A stretch of DNA of 64,000 nucleotides from a virus (IMGVR_UViG_3300042906_000857:3297-67296), one strand, 5' to 3'. Shown: positions 37,791 to 44,137, numbered from the stretch's first letter. Notes: generated by a model from the letters alone, not told the origin. Numbers and translations: made by a program.

Positions 37791-38321
37791 TTATTTCAAC
37801 ACAATACCTTCAATATCATATTTCTTCTTTAAGAATGCCACACACGCTTCTGCTGTTGGTCGTGCCGCTTCTTGTTTGCCGTTCATCATTGCTACCCATT
37901 TCTGACGGTCTGCACGATAGAACACTGTACCATCGGGGTGCAAGGTCTTAGAACCTGTAACAATAGAACCAACTCGAACCTTACCTACTGTGGTGATAAC
38001 CAACTTAGGTTTAACTGTATCTGATCGTTGGCGTGCCATTTTCTTGGATTTTGTTACCTTAACTTTGGTCTCATCGCTTACCTCGTACACCGGTGCCTCA
38101 GGTACAAACTTTGGACCTGTGATTGGACCTACCCAAGGGAAGAAACCAACAGCTGAAGGACGATCTTTGTTGTTCAATGCATCATTCATATCAGAGCCAC
38201 ATGAGCCCCAGAATTCAATATCTGCATTGTAGTAGCGGTAATACTTACCTTGCATACCACGGTCGACCAAATACAACGCCGATTTTGTTGGCGCTTCAGT
38301 GTTAAATGTCATCTCGCTCAT
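37791..38321 (-). CDS. Hypothetical protein (176 aa)
   Basis: ORF only. Confidence 0.35.
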   Translation of the reverse strand: MSEMTFNTEAPTKSALYLVDRGMQGKYYRYYNADIEFWGSCGSDMNDALNNKDRPSAVGFFPWVGPITGPKFVPEAPVYEVSDETKVKVTKSKKMARQRSDTVKPKLVITTVGKVRVGSIVTGSKTLHPDGTVFYRADRQKWVAMMNGKQEAARPTAEACVAFLKKKYDIEGIVLK

Positions 38322-38743
38322 AATACTTCCTTTTCCAATACAGAATTCAAATCAATCATAACCAAATCACCTGCGCCATTGTAGGTCCATTCTACAACGT
38401 GCCACACGCCAAGGCGCATCAAATACAATACCTCGCAACCCATGTCATCATAGTGCCTTGCAAATTCACGCAAGGACGTAAAAGTTTGAAAATCTTGGTC
38501 GGTTTCACCACGGTCACGGGAGTAAAAATTGCACGTTTCTACTTTTTGGTCAAAATCATGCTTTACGCCGATATCAGGTGCCAAGGATGATAGGTTTCCA
38601 ATGCTAATCAACTCATTGGCTTTTGCTGAATCATAGTATTCTGACAAAATGCGGCCATTGTGTGCCAGATAACCATCCCAATGGCAATAAATTGCTTTGA
38701 TTTTCGAACCGTGCATAACGCCGATTGCTGACCGTGTACTCAT
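38318..38743 (-). CDS. Hypothetical protein (start re-called at the internal Met MSTRSAIG because a promoter lies inside the longer ORF)
   Basis: The -10 hexamer at 38778..38773 falls within the ORF-track N-terminus. The first ATG after the predicted TSS is 38743, with a GAGAG RBS. Confidence 0.35.
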   Translation of the reverse strand: MSTRSAIGVMHGSKIKAIYCHWDGYLAHNGRILSEYYDSAKANELISIGNLSSLAPDIGVKHDFDQKVETCNFYSRDRGETDQDFQTFTSLREFARHYDDMGCEVLYLMRLGVWHVVEWTYNGAGDLVMIDLNSVLEKEVL

Positions 38744-38765
38744 TTTACTACTCTCTTGCTTTAAA

Positions 38766-38830
38766 GATACCATTATACCACAATACGACACTCCTGGCAA
38801 CCAGTACTTGACCGGACTGCTGGAGTATTA
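38766..38830 (-). promoter_or_regulatory. Sigma70-type promoter module copy (minus strand): TTGCCA-N17-TGG-TATAAT plus the upstream CCAGCAGTCCGGTCAAGTA element
   Basis: The reverse complement reads ...ctccagcagtccggtcaagtactggTTGCCAggagtgtcgtattgTGGTATAATgg. Confidence 0.5.
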
Positions 38831-39058
38831 TCAGATTGCAGCGAACCGTTCGGTGCTCATAGGCGTGTACAAGCGGGTGGTCAATAATAGGTGTTGTTTG
38901 GTTGCAATAACTTCGCCACAACCAATCTCCGCCAGTTTTTGCAGTCCGATATTGGTGAATTCCTCACCAGCAAGAATATCCAACATATAAATCCAGTTTA
39001 TTTCATTTATTTTATTCATAGTATTATTTTCCATATTGTTCCATCCATGCCAAAGCAA
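38831..39058 (-). CDS. Hypothetical protein (75 aa)
   Basis: ORF only. Confidence 0.3.
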   Translation of the reverse strand: MLWHGWNNMENNTMNKINEINWIYMLDILAGEEFTNIGLQKLAEIGCGEVIATKQHLLLTTRLYTPMSTERFAAI

Positions 39059-39212
39059 TACTTCTTGCTTCGTATTTACTCAATTCAAACTCTTCCTGTA
39101 GATACGGTCCGCAACCGTACATATTGGTCACACCAGATTCACGCAAAGCGTCCAGAAACTCGAAACACTCTTTCAAGAGCTCCTCATCATGCACCATATT
39201 ACTCATTTCCAT
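39024..39212 (-). CDS. Hypothetical protein (62 aa)
   Basis: ORF only. Confidence 0.25.
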   Translation of the reverse strand: MEMSNMVHDEELLKECFEFLDALRESGVTNMYGCGPYLQEEFELSKYEARSIALAWMEQYGK

Positions 39213-39560
39213 TTACTCCGTTCCATACATTAACAAAAAAGAATCGATAAACTCACGACCAACATCAAAAGACACATAATAGTCCCCTTGCATCCCTTGC
39301 TCCGAATAGGATATCTCAGTAGAAATACCACGCACCGATAACTCGTGCTTCAATTCATCCAAGAATAAACTGTCCGTGTATATTAGTCCATTCTCATTAA
39401 CGTCCCAATCTTGGCCATCAAAATACACGCACAACTCACCAAAGGTATTATCCTCGTTAGTATCAACCAACCGAATATCCGTAATAGTAACTGGTTTAAT
39501 CTTATTAGACCAAAGACTATCACCACACGTATTCAAAACAAAATCAACTTTCATTTCCAT
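39213..39560 (-). CDS. Hypothetical protein (115 aa)
   Basis: ORF only. Confidence 0.3.
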   Translation of the reverse strand: MEMKVDFVLNTCGDSLWSNKIKPVTITDIRLVDTNEDNTFGELCVYFDGQDWDVNENGLIYTDSLFLDELKHELSVRGISTEISYSEQGMQGDYYVSFDVGREFIDSFLLMYGTE

Positions 39561-39687
39561 AATCCCTTAAAGATAGAAGCAAAGATAATACCACCACCCA
39601 AGACCAACCAACCATCGATCTGTTCCCAACGAAAACCAATGGCCATAGAAACAATAAACAAACCAATAAAATACATTATAGAAGGCC

Positions 39688-39876
39688 TCAATTGAAATAA
39701 AAACTGTGAATATCAGTTTCCGTATTATATTTTACCGTTAGATCACCAACTGTAAACTCATCACCGTGCTGTTCAACCATATTGGCAAAATTATTCACAT
39801 CACCAAAAATATAATCCACCACATTATCCTCTGTACAGTTACCTTGATAATACTGCATATTAACAGTCCGCATCAT
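39688..39876 (-). CDS. Hypothetical protein (62 aa)
   Basis: ORF only. Confidence 0.25.
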   Translation of the reverse strand: MMRTVNMQYYQGNCTEDNVVDYIFGDVNNFANMVEQHGDEFTVGDLTVKYNTETDIHSFYFN

Positions 39877-40135
39877 AACTCATCCACTCATCGTATTCCG
39901 TTGGTTGACCGTCATCATCATAAAAATCTGATTCTATCTTGATACCACGATTATCCAGTTCCGATTGTAATTCCTCATCCGTGAAATTATCGTAACCTTT
40001 GAAACCAGTCCGTAGATAAGAATTTAATAGTTCCGCAGAATCCATATGGATGATACTATCCCAATCAATATCCACTAGAGTATCAATAACTGCTGACCTG
40101 TATTCTTCCGAATAACTAATAACTTTACCTGACAT
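39860..40135 (-). CDS. Hypothetical acidic protein (91 aa)
   Basis: ORF only. Confidence 0.3.
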   Translation of the reverse strand: MSGKVISYSEEYRSAVIDTLVDIDWDSIIHMDSAELLNSYLRTGFKGYDNFTDEELQSELDNRGIKIESDFYDDDGQPTEYDEWMSYDADC

Positions 40136-40189
40136 AAAACACCTTATAATAAGAAGAAATGAAATAAAAATTCATCATGCGTATATTGT

Positions 40190-40340
40190 CGCAAACCTTG
40201 TCGCAACCTCGATAGTACCTGAATCTAAATGAGAATCAATCGCAATAAGGCTTACCTGAACCATCGCAATTGGTCGCACCTTTGAGTAACCAATGAGTCT
40301 TAGTCTGTGGTTCCCACCGGTTTTTACCTGAAAAGTGGCC
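40190..40340. repeat. Iteron-like short direct repeats: TCGCAA x5 (TGTCGCAA x2, ATCGCAAT x2) and TACCTGAA x3
   Basis: gtcgcaaaccttgtcgcaacc...aatcgcaataagg...catcgcaattggtcgcacc, with tacctgaa at ~40217, 40253 and 40323. Confidence 0.5.
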
Positions 40341-40355
40341 GAAATTCATGGAACC

Positions 40356-40544
40356 TCAGTCTGCCTCAGAGCAATTAAAACACTTTACCTCGAAAGTGTG
40401 TATAATACCATACACTTCATCCGAGAAACCAAGGGCACACAATCGCTTTTGTTCGGACGTGACTAACTCATTAGCGAGACCATGCTTCCACACGAGCTCT
40501 GCAAAGTCTAGAAGGTCCATCGCAACTTGCTTCATTTTTCCCAT
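40356..40544 (-). CDS. First gene of the leftward early transcription unit (62 aa, CxxC-containing)
   Basis: ATG at 40544 with an AAGGAC RBS, ~20 nt downstream of the TSS predicted for promoter B. Confidence 0.35.
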   Translation of the reverse strand: MGKMKQVAMDLLDFAELVWKHGLANELVTSEQKRLCALGFSDEVYGIIHTFEVKCFNCSEAD

Positions 40545-40564
40545 AGTGTGTCCTTGTTATCAAT

Positions 40565-40632
40565 CATGCCATTATACAGGTTTCGGTCTAAATGGCAAGC
40601 CATACTTGACCGGACTGCTGGACTATTGGCCA
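40565..40632 (-). promoter_or_regulatory. Promoter B (minus strand): upstream element plus GGCTTGCCA-N16-TG-TATAAT
   Basis: The reverse complement of 40571-40632 is ccaatagtccagcagtccggtcaagtatggCTTGCCAtttagaccgaaaccTGTATAATggc. Confidence 0.55.
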
Positions 40633-40663
40633 TAAGTGTTGTTTTTTTGCATCATAAGGTGGT

Positions 40664-40730
40664 ATTGTACAGGTTCTGGCCGGAATGGCAAGCATTGATT
40701 TTATACTTGACCGGAATGCTATGGCAAGCG
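40664..40730 (-). promoter_or_regulatory. Promoters C and C2 (minus strand, tandem): TTGCCA-N16-TG-TACAAT, and TTGCCA-N17/18-TAAAAT 35 bp upstream
   Basis: The reverse complement is cttgccattccggccagaaccTGTACAATacc. A second -35 TTGCCA at 40727..40722 has TAAAAT at 40703..40698. Confidence 0.45.
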
Positions 40731-40802
40731 GGGTGTTGTTTTTCTGCAACACGGATGGCGTCACGCAGGCGCCACGTCCACCCCCTTGCTGTTCGAATGG
40801 TC

Positions 40803-40903
40803 CCATTATACACGAACCGACCGAAAAGGCAAGCCCCCCCTCCAATACCCAGCACTCCGGTCAAGAATGGTTGCCTTTTCCCCTGGTTGTGGTATAATAC
40901 ACT
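40803..40903. promoter_or_regulatory. Back-to-back divergent promoter pair D: minus-strand TTGCCT-N16-TG-TATAAT (40832..40805) and plus-strand CCAATAcCCAGCAcTCCGGTCAAGaATGG-TTGCCT-N16-TGG-TATAAT (40843..40898)
   Basis: Read directly: ...cattatacacgaaccgaccgaaaaggcaagcc ccccc tccaatacccagcactccggtcaagaatggttgccttttcccctggttgtggtataatac. Confidence 0.55.
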
Positions 40904-41002
40904 CATGCAAAACGAAAAGACAATTCTAATCACCGCCTCTGGTAAGGTTATGGTTTTCTCCGTTCGCTCCTGCGCTGTACTGTACCAGCAGGCATTCGGT
41001 GG

Positions 41003-41068
41003 TATCTTGACCGATTTGGTCAAGTATCCAGAAAACGCTTGCCAAAACCAATCGGTTCTGGTATAATA
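41003..41068 (+). promoter_or_regulatory. Plus-strand promoter TTGCCA-N17-GG-TATAAT preceded by a perfect inverted repeat CTTGACC-gattt-GGTCAAG (41006-41024)
   Basis: Read directly. It is followed by AACGAAAAGGAC, the RBS, and ATG 41098. Confidence 0.55.
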
Positions 41069-41097
41069 CACTCATATTTAAACGAAAAGGACTTTTT

Positions 41098-41397
41098 ATG
41101 ATAGTTTACACTCCCTCCGCCGCTGCTAAGGCAGTATCATTGGCCGCTGAATTGAAAGCAGAGCGTGCTGTGCTTGCTACTAGTAAGCTCTTGGTTGCTG
41201 CTCTTGCTCGTGAATTGAAAACCCAAAAGCAATTGGCTAAGGACGAAAAGCAGCATGCTCTTGTCCACCGCCGTAACGTGGCTATCGGCAAAGCTCAAGA
41301 TAAGCTTCAGAAGCTTTTGGATAAACAAAATCTGGTTGGTGCGAAAGCTAACAAAGCGAACCGTAAACCTTCCAAGGCCGTGAGCGTTACAGTATGA
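41098..41397 (+). CDS. Ala/Lys-rich coiled-coil small protein (99 aa)
   Basis: ORF with a strong promoter and RBS. Its stop overlaps the next ATG (ATGA). Confidence 0.45.
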   Translation: MIVYTPSAAAKAVSLAAELKAERAVLATSKLLVAALARELKTQKQLAKDEKQHALVHRRNVAIGKAQDKLQKLLDKQNLVGAKANKANRKPSKAVSVTV

Positions 41398-41495
41398 GCG
41401 ATATCCATGCAAAGGCCAGCGTGGCCATTTGGGTGACCTTGGCAATTGCTGTCGTGGTCTTAGGTATGGACTTATTCTTTTGGAGACCACTATGA
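41394..41495 (+). CDS. 33-aa single-TM micro-protein (MSDIHAKASVAIWVTLAIAVVVLGMDLFFWRPL), not in the track
   Basis: ATGA overlap with the upstream stop, and its own TGA overlaps the next ATG; a translationally coupled chain. Confidence 0.3.
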   Translation: MSDIHAKASVAIWVTLAIAVVVLGMDLFFWRPL

Positions 41496-41713
41496 GCATA
41501 GCTCTTCCTTTTAAGTGTATGATATTGGACAGTGAGCCAGTATTGGTGAAAAACCGATTCTCCGGTGAAGGCATTATGCTTACGCCAGAAGCGGTTGCGG
41601 TGTATGATTCTATTATGGGCGCCGAAATGATTGGTTCGTATGATATCGTCCGCAAGGGTATCGATTGGTTTAGGGCACACTTCCCGGAAGCTTACATGGT
41701 TTTGCTAGATTAG
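41492..41713 (+). CDS. Hypothetical protein (73 aa; start at MSIALPF with a GGAG RBS)
   Basis: The ORF-track start at 41429 lacks an RBS. 41492 has GGAG 7 nt upstream. Confidence 0.4.
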   Translation: MSIALPFKCMILDSEPVLVKNRFSGEGIMLTPEAVAVYDSIMGAEMIGSYDIVRKGIDWFRAHFPEAYMVLLD

Positions 41714-41715
41714 GC

Positions 41716-41788
41716 AAGCCCCAGCTAGTACTTGACCGGAGTGGTGGAGTACTGGTTGCCAAAAGCACTGCTTTCTGGTATAATACCA
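41716..41788 (+). promoter_or_regulatory. Plus-strand promoter: AGTACTTGACCGGAGTGGTGGAGTACTGG-TTGCCA-N17-TGG-TATAAT
   Basis: Read directly. It is followed by AACGAAAAGGAttcggaATG (41825). Confidence 0.55.
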
Positions 41789-41824
41789 TCATACAGTAAC
41801 AAAACGGAACGAAAAGGATTCGGA

Positions 41825-42469
41825 ATGATAAAGCTCTCAAAAACAAGCAAGCTAGACGGTGTAAAATCATGGTCACTCCAGGCTATTGAGACCTGCCCCG
41901 GTTCAATGGGTACCGATGGCCAATTGGTTGCTGCTTGTTCTGGTTGCTATGCCACCACCGGTATGTACAATTTTCCAGGCGTGAAGGCACCCCGTGCTTT
42001 CAATAAAGAGGACTGGAAGCGTGCTGATTTTGTTGCTGATTTTATCGTAGCGCTTAAAAAAGAAAAGTACTTCCGCTGGTTCGATTCTGGCGATATGTAC
42101 TCCCTGGACTTGGCGGAGAAAATGTACGCCATCATGGTTGCTACGCCTACAGTGAAGCACTGGTTGCCTACACGTATGGCTAAATTCTTAAAATTCCAGG
42201 CCATACTTGCTAAAATGCAAGCACTGCCTAACGTGATGGTCCGATTCAGCTCCGATGCTATCGATGGTACCTATACATCAAAGCATGGTAGCACAATCTT
42301 ACCTGCTACTGCTACTGTACCTGCCGGCGTGACCTTGTGCCGTGCTTATGAGCGTGGTGGTAAATGCGAATCATGCCGTGCTTGCTATGACAAATCCGTG
42401 GCAGTCATTGGTTATCCCGCTCACGGTAAGAAAATGGGCAAGGTTATTCGGTTGGCAATAGCGGCATAA
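41825..42469 (+). CDS. Cys-motif protein (214 aa), possibly Gp37/Gp68 (DUF5131)-like
   Basis: N-terminal CPGSMGTDGQLVAACSGCYATTG and C-terminal CESCRACYDKS. A W..P/TR pattern is reminiscent of DUF5131. The start was chosen by the RBS and promoter position. Confidence 0.4.
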   Translation: MIKLSKTSKLDGVKSWSLQAIETCPGSMGTDGQLVAACSGCYATTGMYNFPGVKAPRAFNKEDWKRADFVADFIVALKKEKYFRWFDSGDMYSLDLAEKMYAIMVATPTVKHWLPTRMAKFLKFQAILAKMQALPNVMVRFSSDAIDGTYTSKHGSTILPATATVPAGVTLCRAYERGGKCESCRACYDKSVAVIGYPAHGKKMGKVIRLAIAA

Positions 42470-42477
42470 TTTGGTTA

Positions 42478-42545
42478 TAATCCCCCTGAGGCTCGGCCGG
42501 ATAGGGGATTGGGACTGCTCTGCAATGGGGCAGTCCCTTTTTTTG
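42478..42545 (+). terminator. Tandem hairpins ending in an intrinsic terminator (GGGACTGC-tctgcaatgg-GCAGTCCC + TTTTTTT)
   Basis: AATCCCCC...AGGGGATT hairpin, then an 8-bp G/C stem and a T-run at 42538-42545. Confidence 0.6.
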
Positions 42546-42556
42546 CTCTGAGGTTT

Positions 42557-42735
42557 GCTGGTGGTGGCTGGTTGGTGAGCGCTGTGGTGGCATCATTAGC
42601 AATAAAAAGCCCCACCTGGTCAAACTCTTTATTCGCATTTTTTATTTTCTGGTACCTCCCAATGGATTTTCGAAAATATTAATTTTTTTCTCCTGCGGAT
42701 TTTTCGAGGTACCTCTATTTTGAGGAACCTCTATC
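42557..42735. promoter_or_regulatory. Chi octamer GCTGGTGG (42557-42564) in a GTGG-rich stretch, plus three copies of the palindrome GAGGTACCTC / GAGGAACCTC (42638-42731)
   Basis: Read directly: tttGCTGGTGGtggctggttggtg...ctGGTACCTCcc...cGAGGTACCTCtattttGAGGAACCTCtat. Confidence 0.4.
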
Positions 42736-42936
42736 TCATTCCCACTCAATTGGTATTTCACCTAATACATTCATACCACTTTCTCTACCAGCCTCAAAGG
42801 CAGCCTTCATCCATTTCATTGTGAACGCATACTTACCAAGGTCATCGGAGTTTTTCAACGCATCGAATTCTTCGTAAAATCGTTCCGACCTCATACAAAA
42901 GGATTCAGTCTCACAGAACCAATCTTCGAATATCAT
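42736..42936 (-). CDS. Hypothetical protein (66 aa)
   Basis: ORF only. Confidence 0.3.
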   Translation of the reverse strand: MIFEDWFCETESFCMRSERFYEEFDALKNSDDLGKYAFTMKWMKAAFEAGRESGMNVLGEIPIEWE

Positions 42937-43475
42937 ACAGTTTTACTTTTAATATTTTCGATGACGCTTTTTATAAGATTGATATCAGCTCGTTGTTCAT
43001 ACGATCCAATAAAGAATCCTTGAATTTTATTCAGTCCTCTCAGTTTATCTACATGAGACACATTGATATAAAAGTAAGGTGATACCAGTGTGCCTGCGTC
43101 TGCGTACGGATCACCTCTCATGAATTCATAGTGTTTACGATCTACATACTCAGTGTACTCTTTGAAGTTACCTGCAACTATGTACACATACAGGTCTGGA
43201 TTAGGTGAGTTTGTTGCGCTAGCACCACCAGAACCCACAGTGTTTAATGTGTGTTTGCCGATAGCAGTACCGGTACCTATAGACCATTGTGCGGGAGGAT
43301 TAGATGAAACACTTTGGGTTGTGTTGACACTTCGAACACCAAGTAGACTAGCCACTTTGTTAGCCTCATCGATATAATCCTGCCACGGGGTCTTACCACT
43401 TGGCCTTAGCATCGGATCAGGTTGCTTTGAAACGTTTTCGAAAACTTGGTTTGGTATGTGTGTTTTTATTGCCAT
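42933..43475 (-). CDS. Hypothetical protein (180 aa)
   Basis: ORF. A GC hairpin (GGAAGCGC x2) lies in the 5' leader at 43490-43520. Confidence 0.35.
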   Translation of the reverse strand: MAIKTHIPNQVFENVSKQPDPMLRPSGKTPWQDYIDEANKVASLLGVRSVNTTQSVSSNPPAQWSIGTGTAIGKHTLNTVGSGGASATNSPNPDLYVYIVAGNFKEYTEYVDRKHYEFMRGDPYADAGTLVSPYFYINVSHVDKLRGLNKIQGFFIGSYEQRADINLIKSVIENIKSKTV

Positions 43476-43663
43476 AATATGTCCGGAAGCGCCCCTCTCG
43501 GAAGCGCTGGAAAAGTCAGAAGGTCATTGAGTTGGTTCAAAGTAATACTTGAATAGTTTTACGTAATAGGCGAATCTGATTGGTTCTTGTTCGGGGTCAG
43601 GTAGTTTGTTACCAAAAATTTCTACCATTCTATTGTATTTTTCTTGTAGTTCGGTTTCTGTCA

Positions 43664-44137
43664 TTACGAATAATACTTGTCGTATAGTCTTTGTAGAGTG
43701 GTCATAACATCTGTTTCAGACATTATGTTTGCATCTTTTAATGAATCGGACAACGGTGCGATAGACCAACGGCCAGTTTCAACGTTTCTCCAAGTCTCAA
43801 TTAAAATCTCATTGTCACGATGTTGTATGATTCTCTGTGAGTTGATTTCTTTCAGATCATGTTCAGGGAATTGGAAGTTTCGTTTCACTGAATCCTTGTG
43901 TACAAATAGTACATAGTTTTCTAAATTCTTGTCCTCAACATATTCTCCAGATTCGTTTTGACTGACTCCGTAGTTTTCGAAAATAATTTTTACTTCTGAT
44001 AAGGACGAAATGTTTTCTCCGTTATCAAACTTCTCTGCATCGATTAATCGGTTATCTAGAATTTTAGTAACTAACATTACATATTGTTGAATATCGTATT
44101 CCATTTTTTTTATTCCTCGTTGTAAATACTGGACCAA
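43664..44137 (-). CDS. Hypothetical protein (157 aa)
   Basis: ORF only. Confidence 0.35.
   Translation of the reverse strand: MVQYLQRGIKKMEYDIQQYVMLVTKILDNRLIDAEKFDNGENISSLSEVKIIFENYGVSQNESGEYVEDKNLENYVLFVHKDSVKRNFQFPEHDLKEINSQRIIQHRDNEILIETWRNVETGRWSIAPLSDSLKDANIMSETDVMTTLQRLYDKYYS

Follow-up and report, generated by a model that had tools for sequence, protein, structure and literature searches.

The 64,000-nucleotide stretch of viral DNA analysed here (IMGVR_UViG_3300042906_000857:3297-67296; 'the window', with positions counted from its first letter) contains, at 40150-42735, a GC-richer island in which promoters of one repeated design point in both directions. A reading of the sequence alone had described this island as a divergent hub of near-consensus sigma70-type promoters made from one repeated module, and a consensus scan, position weight matrix scores and the copies of an upstream block all agree with that description. 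Judging by its genes, the window comes from a large uncultured T4-like myovirus of ~37% GC: it encodes T4-type core proteins (a gp32-like single-strand-binding protein, baseplate proteins, a gp61-like primase, thymidylate synthase and PhoH), both ribonucleotide reductase subunits, a CobS-like ATPase and a large peptidase ~35% identical to cyanomyovirus peptidases. Below, promoters are named by the first base of their -35 hexamer and their strand (40598- or 40871+, for example), and contigs of related uncultured phages carry L numbers with three digits. The features of the locus are these:

38772-38816, minus strand: further full cassette, outside the island as first delimited; TCCGGTCAAG stands 7 bp from TTGCCA; promoter 38800-, 39.4 bits
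40136-40355, minus strand: conserved non-coding stretch at the left island edge; five direct repeats KTGCGAY, then an AT-rich tail
40356-40544, minus strand: open reading frame (ORF) of 62 amino acids (aa), served by 40598-; ribosome-binding site and ATG 25 nt past the -10
40571-40632, minus strand: cassette L1; -10 TATAAT at 40571-40576, -35 TTGCCA at 40593-40598, block CCAATAGTCCAGCAGTCCGGTCAAGTATGG at 40600-40629
40664-40727, minus strand: cassette L2; -10 TACAAT at 40664-40669, -35 TTGCCA at 40686-40691, TCCGGTCAAG at 40706-40715
40733-40752, minus strand: hairpin GTGTTGcagaaaaaCAACAC, separating cassette L2 from the non-coding element
40753-40800, minus strand: conserved non-coding sequence ATTCGAACAGCAAGGGGGTGGACGTGGCGCCTGCG at the start of the predicted 40832- transcript, ending in the hairpin
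40805-40898, both strands: back-to-back core pair; 40832- with -10 at 40805-40810 and -35 at 40827-40832, 40871+ with -35 at 40871-40876 and -10 at 40893-40898
41007-41067, plus strand: cassette R2; dyad TTGACC-gattt-GGTCAA at 41007-41023, -35 TTGCCA at 41039-41044, -10 TATAAT at 41062-41067
41098-41397, plus strand: 99-aa gene (ORF), with relatives in L089, L053 and L070
41394-41495, plus strand: 33-aa gene (ORF), probably a membrane protein; weak match to a function-less PHROG (E = 0.005)
41492-41713, plus strand: 73-aa gene (ORF), with relatives in L053, L070 and L085
41713-41784, plus strand: cassette R3; -35 TTGCCA at 41756-41761, -10 TATAAT at 41779-41784; 11/12 consensus positions, with TG; 36.9 bits
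41825-42469, plus strand: GP88-family gene, 214 aa; Pfam PF17338 (E = 1.9e-28), phrog_1392 (function-less)
42511-42537 (feature row to 42545), plus strand: intrinsic terminator, a 12-bp stem followed by a T run, closing the plus-strand operon

The consensus scan, in which matches are counted out of 12 positions, finds a sigma70-like site at each place where a promoter had been named, with -35 starts at 40598, 40691, 40727 and 40832 on the minus strand and at 40871, 41039 and 41756 on the plus strand. To avoid circularity, the position weight matrix was built from 89 promoter-like sites of related phages with the window excluded; it admits spacers of 16-17 bp only. With this matrix, 40598- scores 39.4 bits, 40691- 30.9, 40832- 35.3, 40871+ 36.4, 41039+ 40.9 (the window maximum) and 41756+ 36.9, and the peak scores of ten Markov shuffles of the window lie at 8.8-16.5 bits. 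Nine sites in the 64 kb reach at least 30 bits. Six of the nine cluster within 1.2 kb of the island (40.57-41.79 kb), and the other three are 38800-, 35982- and 30416-. Promoter scores are thus far above those of shuffled sequence and concentrated in the island, where the six strong sites (31-41 bits) match 10-11 of the 12 consensus positions. The count of at least eight promoters was too high, as two candidates fail. The 18-bp spacer of 40727- is the upstream block of 40691-, and this site, a by-product of a truncated extra TTGCCA, scores below 12 bits with a matrix limited to 16-17-bp spacers; the hexamers of 42452+, considered as a small-RNA promoter, are not conserved in the closest relative, L089. 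A TTGACC on the reverse strand of the block was also rejected as a divergent -35, since no -10 lies at the correct distance.

The cassette runs, in order, from an upstream block TCCGGTCAAGTAtTGG through TTGCCA or TTGACA, a 16-17-bp spacer with CTG(G), TATAAT and a ~20-nt leader to a ribosome-binding site (AAAGGA). The CTG keeps a fixed distance from the -35, and one added G turns the 16-bp spacer (CCTG-TATAAT) into the 17-bp one (CTGG-TATAAT). Cassette L1 (11/12 consensus positions) carries an exact TCCGGTCAAG with its block 7 bp from the -35; the block of cassette L2 belongs to the 15-bp distance class, and the two promoters of the core pair share a single block, CCAATACCCAGCACTCCGGTCAAGAATGG at 40842-40870. 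In cassette R2 (11/12, with TG) the dyad lies 15 bp upstream of the -35, TGG precedes the -10, and the leader contains AACGAAAAGGA. The block upstream of cassette R3 is in reverse orientation, with an exact TCCGGTCAAG on the minus strand at 41731-41740; nearby, the last part of the 73-aa gene is overlapped by a decayed leftward -35 (GGCAAGCC, 41713-41720), whose -10 is likewise degenerate (TAAGCT). It had been stated that AACGAAAAGGA plus ATG follows each plus-strand promoter. This is so after 41039+ and 41756+, but after 40871+ the ribosome-binding site has decayed to AACGAAAAGAC, and neither an ATG with a ribosome-binding site nor a convincing gene follows. A 53-aa ORF at 40905-41066 (+) was rejected as a gene: it starts 8 nt past the -10 of 40871+ without a ribosome-binding site, overlaps the next cassette and has no relative.

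The -35 itself had been taken as invariably TTGCCA/T with a conserved GGC extension, and from this either a host sigma factor with that preference or a dedicated factor reading GGCAAGCC was proposed. Six perfect TTGACA-N16/17-TATAAT sites occur elsewhere in the same window, all on the minus strand (11763, 13209, 25938, 32485, 44219 and 47543), and equivalent cassettes in relatives carry TTGACA, TTGCCA, TTGCCG or TTGCCT interchangeably, so neither a special sigma factor nor a GGCAAGCC-binding factor is supported. GGCTTGCC is found upstream of 40598- and 40832- only, plus the decayed copy at 41713-41720, while other sites have ATGC, ATGG, ACGC or CTGG before TTGCC. The GGC extension is not conserved; what is kept in addition to the hexamers is TCCGGTCAAGTAtTGG, which lies upstream of the -35.

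Relatives were collected by two IMG/VR pattern scans (block plus -35), and kinship was confirmed by tblastx; the four closest, with L089 the closest of all, were compared ORF by ORF. Contigs of 94 and 166 kb are among the relatives, some of which show collinearity with the window, and proteins shared across the related phages are 30-92% identical. The cassette recurs in at least 16 related uncultured T4-like contigs, each with a GC-richer hub. From 13 sources (12 related contigs and the window) we assembled 39 distinct block-type promoters, with the consensus aata.tt.A.c..tCCGGTCAAGTAttGgTTGcCa. Information content is 1.2-1.9 bits at each of the block positions TCCGGTCAAGTA and averages 0.3-0.8 bits in the spacer. 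Two distances separate block and -35, 7 bp in 25 cases and 15 bp in 11, and the block is found in both orientations. In 15 of the 39 it forms the right arm of a full dyad, TTGACC-N5-GGTCAA, extendable to AATAsTTGACC-N5-GGTCAAsTATT. The full dyads of relatives that were tested fold at -8 to -14 kcal/mol. Block copies of the window fold no better than shuffles (z about 0); this lineage keeps the -35-proximal arm only, the full dyad at 41007-41023 being the exception. That an upstream block accompanies the promoters is confirmed by TCCGGTCAAG, which occurs exactly five times in the window, always between 38.8 and 41.75 kb; with up to one mismatch there are ten matches, compared with a shuffle mean of 1.74 and no shuffle attaining ten.

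In place of the GC-rich block TCCGGTCAAGTAtTGG, the upstream element can be a stem-loop of the form GTTGY...RCAAC, and 64 units of such a stem-loop with a promoter are present in 37 further related contigs; this is the clade's more widespread type. Within the window it directly precedes 47543- (also one of the perfect TTGACA sites), 30416- and 29390-, and stands ~35 nt further upstream of 35982-, past a second hairpin. The weak GTTGY hairpins of the window fold at -5 to -6 kcal/mol; the hairpin at 40733-40752, of the same type, is predicted at -6.2 kcal/mol, a value equalled by 19 of 200 shuffles. In the window, all block-type promoters fall between 38.8 and 41.8 kb, and hairpin-type and plain promoters range over 11-50 kb.

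Neither the island nor the segment at 44-56 kb has a megablast relative among 50,697 GenBank phage records, which leaves this lineage unrepresented among deposited phages. Sensitive blastn with the promoter and the non-coding element gave no match in deposited phages either, and a full-text literature search for the motifs returned chance primer matches only.

The rightward promoters had been assigned a four-gene plus-strand operon ending at a terminator, and four ORFs followed by the terminator at 42511-42537 are indeed found. From this layout, 41039+ would drive the 99-, 33- and 73-aa genes, and 41756+ the GP88 gene. None of the three small proteins belongs to a Pfam family. GP88 is 72-73% identical to its counterparts in L089 and L053, 63-66% to those of two Manatee Spring phages and ~50% to that of Acinetobacter phage AM24; it matches no solved structure (PDB) and no NCBIfam entry, and its family supplies no function. 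Searches of the hub proteins against Pfam, PHROGs, NCBIfam and PDB returned only GP88 with DUF7227 and the function-less PHROGs of GP88 and the 33-aa ORF. The cassette is absent from the nearest GP88 carriers outside the family (MW202796, MW202484 and AM24; loci inspected). A terminator-like hairpin stands at the equivalent place in L089, and a conserved non-coding stretch (GCTGTGGTGGCATCATTAGCAATAAAAAGCCCCACCTGGTCAAAC) follows at 42570-42700 of the window and at L089:3161-3256, between the plus-strand terminator and a converging minus-strand gene. In five contigs (L070:7138-7878, L085 in reverse complement at 1116-1865, L087, L012 and L074), a 246-249-aa protein starting MKLLSTGNPK comes directly after the rightward core promoter. 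It occupies the place of the window's small genes and GP88, and may be a second GP88-like form.

On the other arm, the ORF map and the promoter positions support the claim that the leftward promoters face a small-gene cluster at 34-40 kb. The 62-aa ORF behind 40598- is an orphan, with no Pfam, PHROG or NCBIfam match and no homologue in the four closest relatives. For 40691-, no ribosome-binding site with ATG occurs within 70 nt downstream and no gene was recognised there; 38800-, further left, is predicted to drive a 141-aa gene (phrog_1987).

The core pair, in which the leftward promoter of the non-coding element is set against a rightward promoter, is also present in L089, L053, L070 and L074; L085 also has a back-to-back pair, and there the element's promoter is found ~330 nt further left. 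The genes around the core are mosaic. The window's rightward arm, with GP88 and the 99-aa gene, is common to L089 and L053; the 73-aa gene belongs to the rightward operon of the window and L085, and L053 and L070 have it in the leftward arm. In L070 a cassette stands directly upstream of the 73-aa gene, and the 99-aa gene is inverted. None of the four closest relatives has a counterpart of the window ORFs at 39024-39876, 40356-40544 and 42736-43475, and the gene content between the conserved cassettes 38800- and 41039+ differs between the window and L089. The leader of a cassette has its best match within its own genome in 26 of 90 cases, against 9.1 expected, and four or five cassettes of L070 are nearly identical across 45 nt.

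This arrangement resembles the PeSL (promoter-early stem-loop) cassettes of T4-type phages, which consist of an inverted repeat followed by a sigma70-type early promoter and are linked with modular shuffling of genes (PMC2839356; PMC4122927). The stem-loop of a PeSL is one that can terminate or attenuate transcription, and mini-circles arise when PeSLs recombine with each other. Both are short repeated cassettes in which an inverted repeat immediately precedes the promoter, both are concentrated in variable, orphan-gene-rich regions of T4-like genomes, and in both the genes between cassettes differ from one related phage to the next. Here, small ORFs without family matches flank the cassettes in a T4-like genome, and insertions, deletions or replacements bounded by cassettes can be seen at the level of gene order, the relatives being too diverged for exact junctions. 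On the best-supported account, which we consider likely, the island forms the centre of a hyperplastic region of early genes, a local transcriptional divergence point built from copies of one PeSL-like promoter cassette. Host sigma70 RNA polymerase, unmodified, would use the cassettes early in infection, and each would serve its own short unit, either a small gene or, for 40832-, the conserved non-coding element. Their likeness could also make the cassettes homology patches through which cassette-plus-gene units are duplicated, swapped and inverted, as in PeSLs.

There are differences as well. In described PeSLs the region upstream of the -35 is AT-rich and is preceded by a G/C-tract stem-loop (PMC2839356), whereas here a GC-rich, sequence-conserved block, TCCGGTCAAGTAtTGG, abuts the -35 instead; in the window's lineage this block is half a dyad and does not fold; back-to-back cassettes share one block; and the cassette continues through a conserved leader and ribosome-binding site. 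The hub stands out from described PeSLs by the conserved block beside the -35 and by the conserved non-coding neighbours. Several points count against the PeSL-like explanation. The missing AT-rich stretch is one. Another is that the window's block copies have no left arm and form no hairpin, so that they lack the stem-loop half of what defines a PeSL. The two block distances are 8 bp apart, which is no helical turn and is awkward for an activator bound to one face of the helix. Recombination through the cassettes would follow from mosaic gene order and within-genome likeness, and the use, timing and strength of the promoters are predicted from their sequences. Finally, the cassette 21-mer has 0 matches in 185,579 species genomes and so provides no clue to the host.

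The block may also have a function of its own. Its arm beside the -35 is kept even where the partner arm or the hairpin has been lost, which argues for a sequence-specific reader, probably a protein; the reader implied is most likely a dimeric DNA-binding protein. The block could then be the operator of a dedicated phage or host regulator that co-regulates the hub promoters, as an off-switch or a boost of immediate-early transcription, and the promoters would be factor-dependent or factor-repressed, not constitutive. Such control is compatible with the cassette explanation, and we entertain it tentatively. It fits the stronger conservation of block than spacer across phages whose proteins are so diverged, the confinement of block-type promoters to 38.8-41.8 kb when other types range over 11-50 kb, and the retention of the -35-side arm in the window despite the loss of hairpin potential. 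It fits, too, the shape of the extended dyad, with two 11-bp arms and a 5-bp gap, the size typical of a homodimeric helix-turn-helix site. As operator-controlled early promoters of phages do, many of the co-located promoters here have a conserved dyad, ~17-27 bp long, directly upstream of the -35. In contrast to those, half-sites suffice here in one lineage, and two spacings 8 bp apart coexist along with both orientations; Pfam, PHROG and NCBIfam searches recognised no DNA-binding protein encoded in the hub. The dyad centre would fall near -51 (assuming a start 7 nt after the -10), which is no classical activator position, and the palindrome could equally be an RNA hairpin.

The non-coding element behind 40832- reads ATTCGAACAGCAAGGGGGTGGACGTGG and follows the pattern UUCGAA-N6-20-GGGRUGGACRYRG. 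An IMG/VR scan for it returned 97 stretches, corresponding to ~70-77 distinct real copies in contigs of up to 364 kb, and 56 copies have a recognisable sigma70-type promoter directly upstream. About 70 copies are located in loci L012-L177, on large uncultured phage contigs. Copies differ in length by amounts that are not multiples of three. Rfam covariance models gave no relevant match (E up to 10, 38000-44000), and RNAalifold on 14 copies found 0 pairs and no consensus fold. An anchored column-pair test on 70 copies detected weak covariation, for a 3-4-bp stem with UUCGAA in the loop; this stem is absent from the window's lineage. The element is unmatched in Rfam, in deposited phage genomes and in the literature searched.

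Downstream of the element, at the left island edge, the KTGCGAY repeats start on the minus strand at 40279, 40269, 40245, 40206 and 40194, with spacings of 10, 12, 24 and 39 bp. They span 40188-40279, and the window has only two further minus-strand KTGCGAY sites (seven in all); no cluster in 200 shuffles exceeds two. The stretch at 40136-40355 holds no ORF with a relative and aligns with non-coding DNA of L089, L053 and L022, with which it has CCACAGACTAAGAC and GCGAC repeats in common; in L074 only the GCGAC repeats are shared. Where relatives have tandem TTATCCACA boxes, the window has tandem TTGCGACAA at the same place. We counted relaxed DnaA boxes (TTWTNCACA) on the same strand in the 700 nt downstream of the element, in the 55 contigs with enough flank. 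They number 57, against 1-2 upstream and 1.2 expected by chance; one box or more is present in 21 of the 55 contigs and two or more in 18, and spacing within arrays is mostly 11-12 bp. Such arrays (TTATCCACA) lie 100-600 nt downstream of the element, among them L089:1076-1130, L022:2027-2057, L053:6457-6477, L074:7095-7114 and ~nine boxes in L142. We know of no description of DnaA-box arrays in T4-like phages. A DnaA-box cluster was rejected for the window itself, where one-mismatch matches are at chance level and one relaxed box (TTATACACA, 40397-40405, minus strand) lies inside the 62-aa ORF. Beside the DnaA boxes of L053 there is a palindrome, GATAATGAGAATCATTCTC (L053:6418-6440; listed also at L001:3178-3200), which agrees at 17 of 19 positions with what we take to be the Fur-box consensus; it is present in the unrelated Manatee Spring phage MW202796 as well, and half of it in the window (40227-40243).

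T4 oriE has evenly spaced 12-nt repeats, and active T4 origins lie at transcriptional divergence points (PMC3016281). The hub has the same anatomy: an early-mode promoter (40832-), the start of a non-coding transcript, five KTGCGAY repeats at 40194-40279 and divergence at 40.8 kb. This likeness is one of anatomy only, and the relatives here carry host DnaA boxes, which PMC3016281 does not mention for oriE. The five TTGCGAY repeats at the homologous place make an origin-like role possible, though unproven, and it is doubtful, if conceivable, that the hub is or includes an oriE-type origin, in which an early promoter sends a non-coding transcript toward evenly spaced direct repeats (TTGCGAY in the window, DnaA-box arrays in relatives). 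In its favour are the excess of same-strand DnaA boxes over chance, their 11-12-bp spacing, and the five phased repeats with an AT-rich tail at the homologous window position. Against it, the window's single relaxed box sits within an ORF, two cassettes and a gene separate the element from the repeats in the window, the arrays could titrate host DnaA or serve as transcriptional roadblocks, and the role of the oriE repeats is itself unproven (PMC3016281).

Put more broadly, and at slightly lower odds, the hub would serve this large uncultured T4-like clade as its replication origin or as a locus that interacts with DnaA, which we think unlikely. If it did, the conserved, largely unstructured G-rich element UUCGAA...GGGGUGGACGUGG, of which there are ~70 copies, in metagenomes only, would be fired toward the phased repeats; by analogy with T4 oriE and oriF, its transcript would have the task of opening or priming the origin, with recruitment of host DnaA or a phage initiator left to the repeats. 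In another version of this reading, DnaA would be titrated off the host chromosome by the arrays. To our knowledge, the origins of T4-like phages other than T4 are essentially unmapped.

The leftward promoters had also been compared with phage T7 A1/A2/A3, a stack of strong promoters firing into one early operon to raise its output. One part of the comparison stands: 40598-, 40691- and 40832- are strong, co-directional and all within 260 bp, as are the several host-polymerase promoters close together in T7. The three T7 promoters, at the end of the genome, all supply a single early operon, whereas here each cassette heads its own unit, one of them non-coding, in a bidirectional hub of a T4-like phage. 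The conserved non-coding element and the hairpin follow 40832-, no gene follows 40691-, and only 40598- has a ribosome-binding site and gene. In relatives, genes lie between the equivalent cassettes, so the tandem spacing in the window looks like the result of cassette turnover and not a designed stack. We regard a T7-type stack as improbable.

The GC content of the island, put at 50-55%, measures 46.3% at 40150-42735 and 47.6% at 40560-42560, against 37.1% in the rest of the window; only single 300-bp segments of the sliding analysis reach 50-53%. The island is nonetheless the GC-richest part of the window, so its GC-richer nature holds. A GC-richer hub occupies the same locus in every relative examined, with hub and surroundings at 43-47% and 32-36% in L089, 48-52% and 37-41% in L074, and 45-47% and 35-43% in L085. 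The GP88 copies of the window and L089 share 72% identity, within the 38-73% found for the flanking genes common to both. With the hub in all relatives and GP88 diverged like its neighbours, the island is old in the lineage and no recent acquisition, contrary to the suggestion that it might be local. That the island is a recently acquired, moron-like foreign segment from a GC-richer phage, which brought its own promoters along, is very improbable: the GC difference (46-48% against 37%) and the unrelated, smaller phages among which the nearest GP88 relatives outside the family are found speak for it, but the same genes sit in the same hub in all relatives examined, GP88 falls inside the span of the flanking genes, the Manatee Spring and Acinetobacter phage loci are without the cassette, and the cassette also occurs beyond the island at 38800- and 35982-, which together make a recent event largely refuted; acquisition long ago, ahead of the family's divergence, is possible.

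Altogether, what the sequence-only reading observed is largely real, several of its details were overstated, and its interpretation was half right. If the PeSL-like cassettes work as we propose, this clade has its own version of PeSLs, and a mechanism of modular gene shuffling known from a few cultured T4-type phages would also operate in environmental ones. A precise model of the early promoter helps to annotate such genomes and to predict their early genes, and the invariant block beside the -35 is a defined candidate operator. The promoter-proximal element with its DnaA-box arrays, for its part, offers a concrete origin candidate, and raises the question of whether these phages would use host DnaA or sequester it.

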